From a virus (lineage: Duplodnaviria; Caudoviricetes): 62,583 nucleotides of DNA. Of the stretch, positions 61,152 to 62,505 are shown in pieces. Position numbers and translations under genes: made by a program. Numbering within the stretch: position 1 is the first letter of the stretch; each line of letters starts with the position of its first letter. Under the pieces are notes generated by a model. It saw only the letters and a program-made list of their open reading frames with translations. It did no database searches and was not told the origin of the DNA. The stretch spans positions 1-62,583 of IMG/VR virus record IMGVR_UViG_3300049015_000009; one strand, written 5' to 3'.

Positions 61152-62225
61152 CTAACCCAGGATCTTCTCAATGCAAGGCCAGCCAGCGTATTTATCACCT
61201 GACTGTCTGATGTGTGTATATCTCTTCAACGAACTCCAGGACTTATGCCCTGATACCTGTGCTACCTGGGGAATATTCCATCCCATCTCAAATAGCCTGC
61301 TGATGCCGTCATGACGTAGGTCATGGAAGTGCAAGTCGTCAATCTCCAGGAAGTCGCATGCTTTCCTGAATGAGGTACTGATTGACTCTGCGTTGTAGGG
61401 CCAGATGATTCCATTGGTTTCAGGTTGTAGCTCTATGAGCTTGAGGGCTTCCGGTGTCAATGTCGTGCGGACATCATTGCCGATCTTCTCGCCTGGATTT
61501 TTCATATCCCGCACCGTTATTTCCAGGTGCTTTGTGTCCAAGTCTGAACCAGTGATTCGGGTAATCTCTTCCTGTCGTCTGGTGCTGAAGATGGCAAAGG
61601 GAATGATTCGCGTCATGGGGATTGAGTAAGGTCTGCGCTTCTCCATGGCCGCGTAGTACTCCATGAGCTTGTTGAGTTCATTCAGGGTAGGACGTCGGTC
61701 TCGTTCCTTGGACTTGGAGATAAGGCCCAGCTTCTTCATGACCACCTTGGCATCCAGCATTGCCTGTGGGTCAAGGGGATGGCCCCAGGCAGCTCGGGCC
61801 ACCACGAAGACCGAGGAGAGGTGAGCCACGTAGTTGCCTCTGGTTTGGGGTGTGGCGTCGATCTCATCCCTGACCCAGTCCACCAGCTCCTTGCTGCCGA
61901 TGGTGCTACAGCGTGTAGCACCGAGCTTGGAAGCCGAGATGGTCCTCAAGACCTGGGTCTTGGTCTTCCCGTGCTCCTTGAGCTTCTCGGTGTTGTACTG
62001 GGTGATCACCTCGGAGAGCAGGGGATCCTTCACATCTGGCTTCGGGTCCAGGGCACCTGGCTTGGACAGCTCAGCGAGCCGGTTACGTCTCCAGTTTTTC
62101 GCTGCCTGCTCCCGGTCGAAGGTCTCAGCTTCGCTGTGGATGACCTTGCCGCCCTTCTTGATGCGGATCTGGGCCGTGTACCCAACGGAGCCATCTTTGC
62201 GCTTGCGTGGGACAATGCCTGCCAT
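61152..62225 (-). CDS. int: Tyrosine integrase, dusA-associated type
   Basis: RKRKDGSVGYTAQIR N-terminus; RRQEEI, HFHDLRH, SGH, RY catalytic residues. Confidence 0.93.
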   Translation of the reverse strand: MAGIVPRKRKDGSVGYTAQIRIKKGGKVIHSEAETFDREQAAKNWRRNRLAELSKPGALDPKPDVKDPLLSEVITQYNTEKLKEHGKTKTQVLRTISASKLGATRCSTIGSKELVDWVRDEIDATPQTRGNYVAHLSSVFVVARAAWGHPLDPQAMLDAKVVMKKLGLISKSKERDRRPTLNELNKLMEYYAAMEKRRPYSIPMTRIIPFAIFSTRRQEEITRITGSDLDTKHLEITVRDMKNPGEKIGNDVRTTLTPEALKLIELQPETNGIIWPYNAESISTSFRKACDFLEIDDLHFHDLRHDGISRLFEMGWNIPQVAQVSGHKSWSSLKRYTHIRQSGDKYAGWPCIEKILG

Positions 62226-62231
62226 GGTTCG

Positions 62232-62477
62232 GTGCTACAGGGAGTTGGTGTAGCACTCAATGTAGCACCGGGACTCCGAAAAGACCGGGAAAAGCCAGGA
62301 AAGGTCGGGAACGTGACACTGAGAGAGAGCCCCGTTTTCATAGAGGGAACGGTCCTTCATGGGAGATGGAAGCTGAGCGTTGCCCCGATGATGGATTGGA
62401 CGGATCGACCGGAGAATCCTTTATAAAACAGCTACTTAGTTCCACACCCTGTGAAGGATGTAGAACTTTCGTAGCAC
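62232..62477. other. attP-like site: dusA core flanked by TGTAGCAC arm-type repeats
   Basis: Arms at 62232-39 (inverted), 62249-56, 62261-68, 62459-66 (TGTAGAAC), 62470-77 (CGTAGCAC); core ~62376-62407. Confidence 0.75.
62313..62426 (+). pseudogene. dusA: Phage-borne dusA 5' fragment (37 aa)
   Basis: [12 protein letters not shown] is the DusA N-terminal motif; stop 5 codons later. Confidence 0.8.
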
Positions 62478-62505
62478 CCAGCCCCAGTTCTCGTACATCG
62501 AAAAG

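Follow-up and report, generated by a model that had tools for sequence, protein, structure and literature searches.

A probable dusA-targeting integration module in the genome of an N4-like soil phage

A dusA-type module in an N4-like genome

The subject of this analysis is a stretch of 62,583 bp, referred to throughout as the window, which is the whole of the IMG/VR virus record IMGVR_UViG_3300049015_000009 (class 'linear', CheckV completeness 85%). Most probably the window covers part of the unintegrated genome of a soil phage of the N4-like (Schitoviridae) type that carries, between the genes gp24 and gp25, an integration module directed at the host gene dusA and composed of a dusA-associated integrase (DAI) and a phage attachment site (attP). 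A first-pass annotation of this DNA had pointed to an N4-like genome, encoding a virion RNA polymerase (vRNAP), that is contiguous with an intact integrase and a divergent piece of the 5' end of dusA. That observation stands, save that the dusA piece is not the fragment of a disrupted host gene but the phage's own surrogate, lying within attP.

The integrase gene (int) and the sequence directly after it are laid out as follows.

61152..62225, minus strand: tyrosine integrase of the DAI family, 357 aa, intact (PF00589 Phage_integrase, E=1.5e-16)
61112..61132, minus strand: terminator-like hairpin and T-run directly after int, between int and gp25 (8-pair stem with 5 GC pairs, then TTTTATTGCC), a consensus match only

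All 160 aligned relatives, 80 of them drawn from IMG/VR and 80 from metagenome contigs, share the catalytic residues of the integrase without exception (R216/R217, K242, H301, R304, H327 and Y336). Matches occur in 194 phage records, every one of them below 60% identity, and the identities to named phages and to the loci discussed below are these:

Burkholderia phage AH2: 54.6%
Rhizobium phages RHph_Y3_1 and RHph_Y3_56_1: 54.3%
Pseudomonas phage H66 and relatives: 51%
BcepMigl, 49%; BcepIL02, 48.7%; DC1, 47.5%
Loci L002, 71%; L087, 69%; L101, 64%; L065, 53%

According to the available part of Farrugia et al. (2015, PMC4482086), AH2, BcepMigl, BcepIL02, DC1 and H66 bear phage-borne orthologues of the dusA-associated integrases, and a DAI element replaces the 5' end of dusA. 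After setting aside the 30 loci with less than 130 nt upstream of the integrase, the conserved DusA motif was found at the same place in 97 of the 130 assessable ones, the remaining 33 having no DusA motif by the pattern used. The motif runs on into dusA (…DWTDRHCR…) in 75 loci, which are integrated elements seen at attR, and is followed by a stop within 0-35 codons in another 22, which are attP-like. The window falls in the latter class, and so do the virion genomes of AH2 (L069), BcepMigl (L071), BcepIL02 (L072) and DC1 (L078). The comparison places the integrase among those associated with dusA, as the first-pass annotation had supposed, and the recurrence of the motif, together with the 33-nt identity to a real dusA gene described below, shows that the resemblance to dusA is not a matter of chance.

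Integration itself is seen in a relative. In the metagenome contig L087 the frame upstream of int passes the core of the attachment site into authentic DusA sequence and continues up to the contig end, beside a run of int, gp25, helicase and family-A DNA polymerase (PolA) genes. The continuation is authentic DusA, as comparison with the 75 attR loci indicates, and an N4-like genome is therefore integrated in dusA in this contig. The earlier claim that the phage can lysogenise gains support in this way from an integrated relative; for the phage of the window, which is in attP form, lysogeny is inferred and was not seen. More generally, some N4-type phages are probably able to lie dormant.

Anatomy of the attachment site

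The following features make up the region between int and the right end of the window.

62313..62426, plus strand: surrogate dusA 5' end, divergent from int, with the conserved DusA 5' signature (…APMMDWTDR), then PENPL and a stop
62377..62409, no strand: attP core or crossover region, matching an uninterrupted dusA contig of run X2 at all 33 nt
62232..62268, no strand: three exact TGTAGCAC repeats, one inverted (62232-62239) and two direct (62249-62256 and 62261-62268)
62459..62477, plus strand: two one-mismatch copies of the arm repeat, TGTAGAAC and CGTAGCAC, on the far side of the core
62476..62583, minus strand: 3' end of an open reading frame (ORF), closing with LAQGLRQMVKGDQDWERVALAKPAA and a stop and running off the contig end, at the same position as the ORF upstream of attP in L002

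The dusA frame of the window stops 6 codons past DWTDR, and in the four virion genomes L069, L071, L072 and L078 it likewise stops shortly after the motif. In the spacer that separates int from this frame (62226-62312) a scan for the sigma-70 consensus, extended as far as the core, detected no promoter-like site; the GTG at 62313, preceded by AGGAAAGG, is the sole ordinary in-frame start and, to judge from the sequence, a candidate start for the rebuilt dusA. Uninterrupted dusA pieces that resemble the core over 31-38 nt are also present in runs X3 and X4, with 3 and 1 differences respectively, and the pieces of X2-X4, from similar soils, are thus candidate host attachment sites (attB). When the stretch from int to the core was aligned for three attP-type elements (the window, L002 and L004) and two attR-type elements (L087 and L003), the block T.GC.CC.ATG.T.GA.TGGAC.GA was invariant in all five and the attP and attR sequences parted only afterwards. 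An attachment core of about 21 bp, semiconserved and set within the conserved 5' stretch of dusA, is hence present in the window, as both this invariant block and the 33-nt identity to a real dusA indicate.

The exact TGTAGCAC octamer occurs five times in the 62.6-kb window, all copies lying inside 61903-62268, and the copies of the spacer coincide with conserved columns in L002, L087, L004 and L003. Allowing one mismatch, the count is 42 against an expected 46.7, which is not above chance, so that only the clustering is of note. The copies on both sides of the core are probably arm-type integrase sites, with a proximal arm at 62232-62268 and a distal arm at 62459-62477, and the distal repeats therefore argue that 62410-62480 is phage and not host DNA. 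The other two exact copies form an inverted pair at 61903-61921, within the 5' part of int; they may be further integrase-binding sites, conceivably involved in autoregulation, or may be there by chance.

Beyond the core, 118 nt are alike in runs X1 and X2. The ORF at the right end, of which 25 aa are present, has no convincing homologue among the loci, and an exact search of IMG/VR with the last 54 nt of the window for a contig that continues it returned no match. Run X2 agrees with the window up to 62527 and differs beyond, while both assemblies, that of IMG/VR and the Logan contig of X1, stop at 62583, a pattern that suggests population variation upstream of attP breaking the assemblies. 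The window is the attP, unintegrated form of the element and not a prophage junction.

From this anatomy a route of integration can be sketched. The phage genome would circularise after injection, and the integrase, presumably bound to the TGTAGCAC arm sites that flank the core, would recombine the core with the matching stretch of the host dusA. Since attP is intact within the genome, such recombination would move the entire phage. The int-proximal arm would then provide dusA with a substitute 5' end, and in L087 dusA does continue past the core. The PrtN-family gene that relatives carry just upstream of attP, at a position that falls beyond the contig end of the window, might serve as an excision or regulatory factor.

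The N4-like genome

The vRNAP gene of the window is uninterrupted (16643-27208, plus strand; 3521 aa) and matches phrog_2206 over profile positions 120-3399 of 3406 (E=0, 1798 bits). The other landmarks of an N4-type genome are listed here.

190..16615, plus strand: late or structural block, with a gp69-like protein (phrog_2109), TerL (2101-3744) and portal (5024-7222)
7636-8826 and 8850-10259, plus strand: late block, continued, with a phrog_2120 protein and the major head protein, respectively
55037..59597, minus strand: N4-type replication genes, with PolA (55037-57712), a 184-aa ORF (57724-58278) and an SF1 helicase (58296-59597)
59914..61029, minus strand: gp25-type protein of N4, with a metallopeptidase-like DUF2201_N and a VWA-like DUF2201 domain

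Portal, head protein and TerL match N4-type PHROGs, and the window also encodes SSB, a primase, an exonuclease, a Sak4-like annealing protein, RuvC, ribonucleotide reductase and thymidylate synthase. PolA, compared with 50,697 phage records, comes closest to N4-like isolates, which share 52-53% of its residues (among them Klebsiella phages MY01, Pylas and KpCHEMY26, Salmonella FSL SP-058 and Pseudomonas Littlefix), and the N4-type order of core genes (PolA gp39, portal, capsid, TerL, gp25, SSB and primase) is syntenic with L001, L083 and L084. A megablast of 58000-62583 against the same records gave zero matches, and because similarity to any phage record is thus absent at the DNA level, the window must be counted as a distant N4-like phage.

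The RNAPII genes (gp15/gp16), the gp24 ATPase and the early region were not found in the 85%-complete window, whose right end lies 174 nt beyond the attP core. RNAPII and gp24 sit directly upstream of gp25 in L001 and other ordinary N4-like genomes, and their absence fits the missing 15%, with both presumably located beyond the right end. A search for RNAPII with PF00940 had no match anywhere, controls included, and is uninformative; no terminal repeats are shared by the two ends of the window.

Some further features of the genome may be recorded. The replication region, on the minus strand, contains a 12-kb block of plus-strand genes (39054-50449) encoding tail fibres, large proteins without assignment, an endolysin (49508-50014) and a likely holin and spanins, and a prophage in a Burkholderiaceae genome, G003, described below, has a tail-fibre match at the corresponding place, after thymidylate synthase. 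A dUTPase gene (4544-4966, minus strand) lies on the opposite strand within the late operon, and a protein with an Nmad5 (nucleotide-modification-associated) domain is encoded near the replication genes (52037-52609, minus strand).

The junction between int and gp25

The arrangement at the left border of the module recurs in loci from other data sets. In L002, an IMG/VR contig of 47.9 kb, the order is int (71% identity to the window), gp25 (57%), a small ORF (44%), helicase (64%), the 184-aa ORF (63%), PolA (67%) and the next gene (62%); in L087, a metagenome contig of 6.8 kb, int (69%), gp25 (61%), helicase (63%) and PolA (67%) follow one another; and in L101 an integrase of 64% identity is followed by the first 24 residues of gp25 at 92%, a contrast that hints, from the locus 6-1730, at integrase alleles being exchanged between close phages. 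The identity of the integrases of L002 and L087 (69-71%) is in line with that of PolA (67%) and helicase (63-64%).

Run X1 contributes a Logan contig that reproduces 56000-62583 without a difference, but X1 is possibly the source of the window and hence not independent. Runs X2-X4, from three other studies, contain difference-free pieces that include 61062-61321 (X2) and 61047-61197 (X3); no piece bridging 60966-61061 is listed among the X1-X4 contigs, uncovered stretches being uninformative in this respect. There is no break in composition at the junction. A row of X2 that links 60196 to 62510 was disregarded as spurious.

A vRNAP is represented in the L002 record too, by its C-terminal 1385 aa (E=3.8e-286), and upstream of the L002 attP lie RNAPII, gp24, an HD-domain gene and a PrtN-family gene (PF11112, E=8e-27), so that phage genes are found on both sides of attP there. 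The cassette of L002, about 2 kb in length, comprises the PrtN-like gene, one ORF, attP and int, and sits between gp24 and gp25, carrying neither cargo nor a second attachment site. Three records, G000, G001 and G002 (those of the window, L002 and L065), have a vRNAP and a DAI integrase on the same contig; a search at the protein level with the polymerase domain did not pick up the partial vRNAPs of G001 and G002, which the hidden Markov model of the family recovered. As a separate matter, the gene for the larger RNAPII subunit (gp16 type) is split in L002 (2376-4765) into ORFs at 2376-3098 and 4241-4765 by a 279-aa ORF (3405-4244) without a Pfam match, whereas in L001 it is continuous; the intervening ORF may be a mobile endonuclease or an intron-type insertion.

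Distribution of the module among N4-like phages

An alignment-based search of IMG/VR with gp25 retrieved 466 relatives, and gp24 is present in 75 of the best 80 of these loci. A tree of gp25 and helicase was built from 30 rows (the 23 closest new loci, L082, L084, L087, L001, L202, L002 and the window), with the 55 more distant gp25 loci excluded. In it the three phages that bear int and L178, which IMG/VR classes as a provirus, make up a clade of four rows (SH-aLRT 98). The integrases of the window, L002 and L087 likewise group together (SH-aLRT 93), and that of L101 lies in a neighbouring group, among the integrases of other prophages. The cassette is absent from the equally close relatives L082, L176, L177 and L181. 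These trees and gene contents fit a single old acquisition that was followed by loss or exchange. The position of the cassette is not the same in L065, whose record contains a vRNAP N-terminus (E=3e-102): here PrtN, attP and int are found inside the early region. PrtN-family genes adjoin attP in both L002 and L065.

Seen more broadly, the closest N4-like relatives of the window bear several different integrase types. The most complete case is contig G003:C129, from a metagenome-assembled genome of the Burkholderiaceae, which holds an N4-like prophage of about 76 kb with vRNAP, RNAPII, gp24 and gp25 (loci L173, L001, L165, L174 and L175). On it, after tRNA-Gly and tRNA-Cys genes, come a non-DAI tyrosine integrase (392-1570) and then an excisionase-like ORF; a second copy of the 50-bp tRNA-Cys 3' end lies some 76 kb away, at 76431-76480 of the contig, and the G+C content rises from about 0.5 within the prophage to 0.67 beyond approximately 78 kb. 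A search of 401 Burkholderiales genomes with the vRNAP family produced a real match only in G003, five others being weak and partial (profile positions 173-580).

Among the records of five close gp25 relatives, three match PF00589, two of these above the cut-off; two of the five carry the provirus class, and direct terminal repeats occur in one. IMG/VR places G404 and G405 among the proviruses. The loci L255-L257 (records G405, G406 and G407) are close gp25 relatives with other tyrosine integrases, one of which is a 357-aa open frame, 33% identical to the integrase of G003, at the end of a provirus-class record, while another belongs to a complete 74.7-kb genome with direct terminal repeats.

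Alternative readings

That the window might be an integrated prophage whose last 174 bases are host DNA, from a secondary non-dusA site or a degraded dusA, could be argued from its last 108 bases, which form the end of a G+C-rich ORF without phage homologue, and from the contig stopping there in both assemblies. It is nonetheless very unlikely, given the two arm-type repeats past the core, the lack of dusA sequence after it, the phage genes that follow attP in L002 and L065, the linear rather than provirus class of the record, and the fact that X2 has 62410-62527 in common with the window, so that divergence begins later than the core. The first-pass annotation had itself raised a chimeric assembly, in which an N4-like contig would have been misjoined to an unrelated integrase element at 61030-61151. 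This has nothing but the rarity of the arrangement in its favour and its probability is negligible, for the junction recurs at 57-71% identity with the order int-gp25-helicase-PolA in L002 and L087 and with int next to the start of gp25 in L101, identical pieces cover it in part in X2 and X3, and composition is even. It had also considered that the integrase might belong to a separate element. A small satellite or island parasitising the phage genome would be compatible with the absence of the cassette from four equally close relatives, with the two positions that DAI cassettes occupy in L002 and L065 and with the other integrase types found elsewhere in N4-like phages, but it is most improbable in view of the cargo-free cassette of L002, lodged between gp24 and gp25 without a second attachment site, and of integrases that diverge in step with their neighbouring genes.

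A small but appreciable probability attaches to the notion that the module is real and its lysogens are neither stable nor inducible, integration being rare, transient or a dead end for lack of the virion RNA polymerase. N4 early promoters depend on injected vRNAP, and the attP form is found in the window as well as in L002 and L065. Several observations weigh against the main reading. The module is rare: only one of the best 80 of the 466 gp25 relatives, examined over ±6 kb, has a DAI integrase, and this one (L198) is the L002 contig; L178, the sister of the window in the tree, is a record without an integrase match. L087 consists of one contig at coverage 4 in which dusA is cut off by the contig end after only 51 nt (17 codons), and neither attL nor attR of the phage of the window was seen in the X1-X4 contigs, where the pieces that span the core are plain dusA. 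No CI/Cro-type (HTH_3) or LexA-type (Peptidase_S24) repressor domain was found in the records of the window, L002 and L065, and ten small unassigned ORFs of the window, from which the early region is missing, contain no regulator domain. Furthermore, the available part of a study of Bcep22-like phages (PMC9144972), which share the integrase family, describes them as without stable lysogens, the DAI-bearing BcepIL02 and DC1 among them. Against the rival notion stand the integrated state of L087, the module remaining intact despite divergence to 57-71% identity, and the existence of full N4-like prophages, namely G003:C129 with its 50-bp tRNA-Cys repeats and the proviruses G404 and G405. On balance, a working integration module aimed at dusA is the reading we retain.

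Restart of transcription from a prophage

In N4, injected vRNAP reads the early promoters and RNAPII the middle genes; the late genes, that of vRNAP included, are left to the host polymerase with phage SSB. Because the early promoters need injected vRNAP, an N4-type prophage would be left without its first enzyme, and the problem posed in the first-pass annotation, that no injected vRNAP is at hand upon induction, is a sound inference from N4 biology. The window cannot bear on the matter, because its early region is missing. HTH_3 and Peptidase_S24 were also not found on the complete prophage contig G003:C129, other repressor families not having been searched, and LexA-box patterns had no match in the window or L002 and single, chance-level matches elsewhere. 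A search for direct repeats in L065 and L001 did reveal, in the early region of L065 (5344-7178), three 20-nt hairpins (at 5344, 6748 and 7159) with a 6-bp stem and a 3-nt loop followed by T-rich sequence, which are candidates for vRNAP-type promoters or small terminators.

These results are compatible either with a repressor belonging to some other family or with default silence that a PrtN-type activator would break. The latter can be extended into a speculation that we consider rather unlikely, but worth stating: N4-like prophages would be silent by construction, for an integrated copy could not start the cascade if its early promoters were read only by a polymerase delivered with the virion, and they would be restarted through an entry point for host RNA polymerase, such as a PrtN-family activator. 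The PrtN-family gene beside attP may then switch on the RNAPII or vRNAP genes, and the decision between lysis and lysogeny may consist in shutting off the injected polymerase.

Significance and comparison with known systems

N4-type phages are regarded as strictly lytic, are candidates for therapy and serve as a model for virion-delivered transcription. A defined module, with an integrase, a mapped attP core, arm repeats and a target gene, offers a clonable system in which N4-type lysogeny can be tested, and if such phages do lysogenise, they make it possible to test how a phage restarts from the chromosome when its first promoters need an injected polymerase. This handle on the restart question is the main value of the module, whose occurrence here also shows that integration cassettes of the dusA type are passed between unrelated kinds of phage.

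As a novelty, lysogeny in N4-like phages had been overrated in the first-pass annotation, but the dusA target and the anatomy of attP are new. In the available part of their study, Zheng et al. (2023, mSystems, PMC10654107) report 54 N4-like genomes with lysogeny hallmark genes (integrase, transposase or diversity-generating retroelement) and 40 integrated N4-like proviruses, mostly of Moraxella, and propose lysogeny. As here, their case is made from genomes alone, on IMG/VR N4-like genomes with integrases, although high-quality genomes were used there and the window is 85% complete. Because N4-like integrases were thus already published, the gain of the present analysis is one of mechanism and detail, and not of principle. 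The main text of that paper does not contain dusA, attP, 'attachment site', repressor, excision or induc*, and a literature search found dusA and Schitoviridae mentioned together in unrelated contexts only, with dusA not linked to N4-like phages.

The likeness to the DAI of prophages and islands, as described in the available part of Farrugia et al. (2015, PMC4482086), extends to a tyrosine integrase placed divergently beside the dusA 5' end, to the supply of a new 5' end, and to a short semiconserved core in the conserved 5' stretch of the gene; a prtN homologue is often nearby in those elements (60 of 94 islands), and here it is found in the relatives L002 and L065. The carrier is different, being an N4-like phage with a vRNAP, a type not listed in that part of the paper, and the window is in attP form with the prtN position off the contig. 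The virion genomes of AH2, BcepIL02, BcepMigl and DC1 display the same attP layout, with a dusA-like frame that ends 0-15 codons after DWTD; these phages and H66 have integrases 47-55% identical to that of the window, but they are unrelated phage types and lack a vRNAP.

With coliphage N4 and the lytic Schitoviridae, on the other hand, the window shares the giant vRNAP, PolA, gp25, helicase, SSB, primase and the late structural block, while RNAPII gp15/gp16 and gp24 are found in its relatives L002 and L001. It departs from them in the int/attP cassette between gp24 and gp25 and in the 12-kb opposite-strand block of tail-fibre and lysis genes in the replication region. The tRNA-Cys prophage of G003:C129 encodes proteins 50-76% identical to those of the window, but its integrase is non-DAI and lies at another position in the genome, and it is integrated. 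The phage of the window is thus a new member of two groups, the phages that carry dusA-associated integrases and the integrase-bearing N4-like viruses, and it brings to both a well-defined attP.

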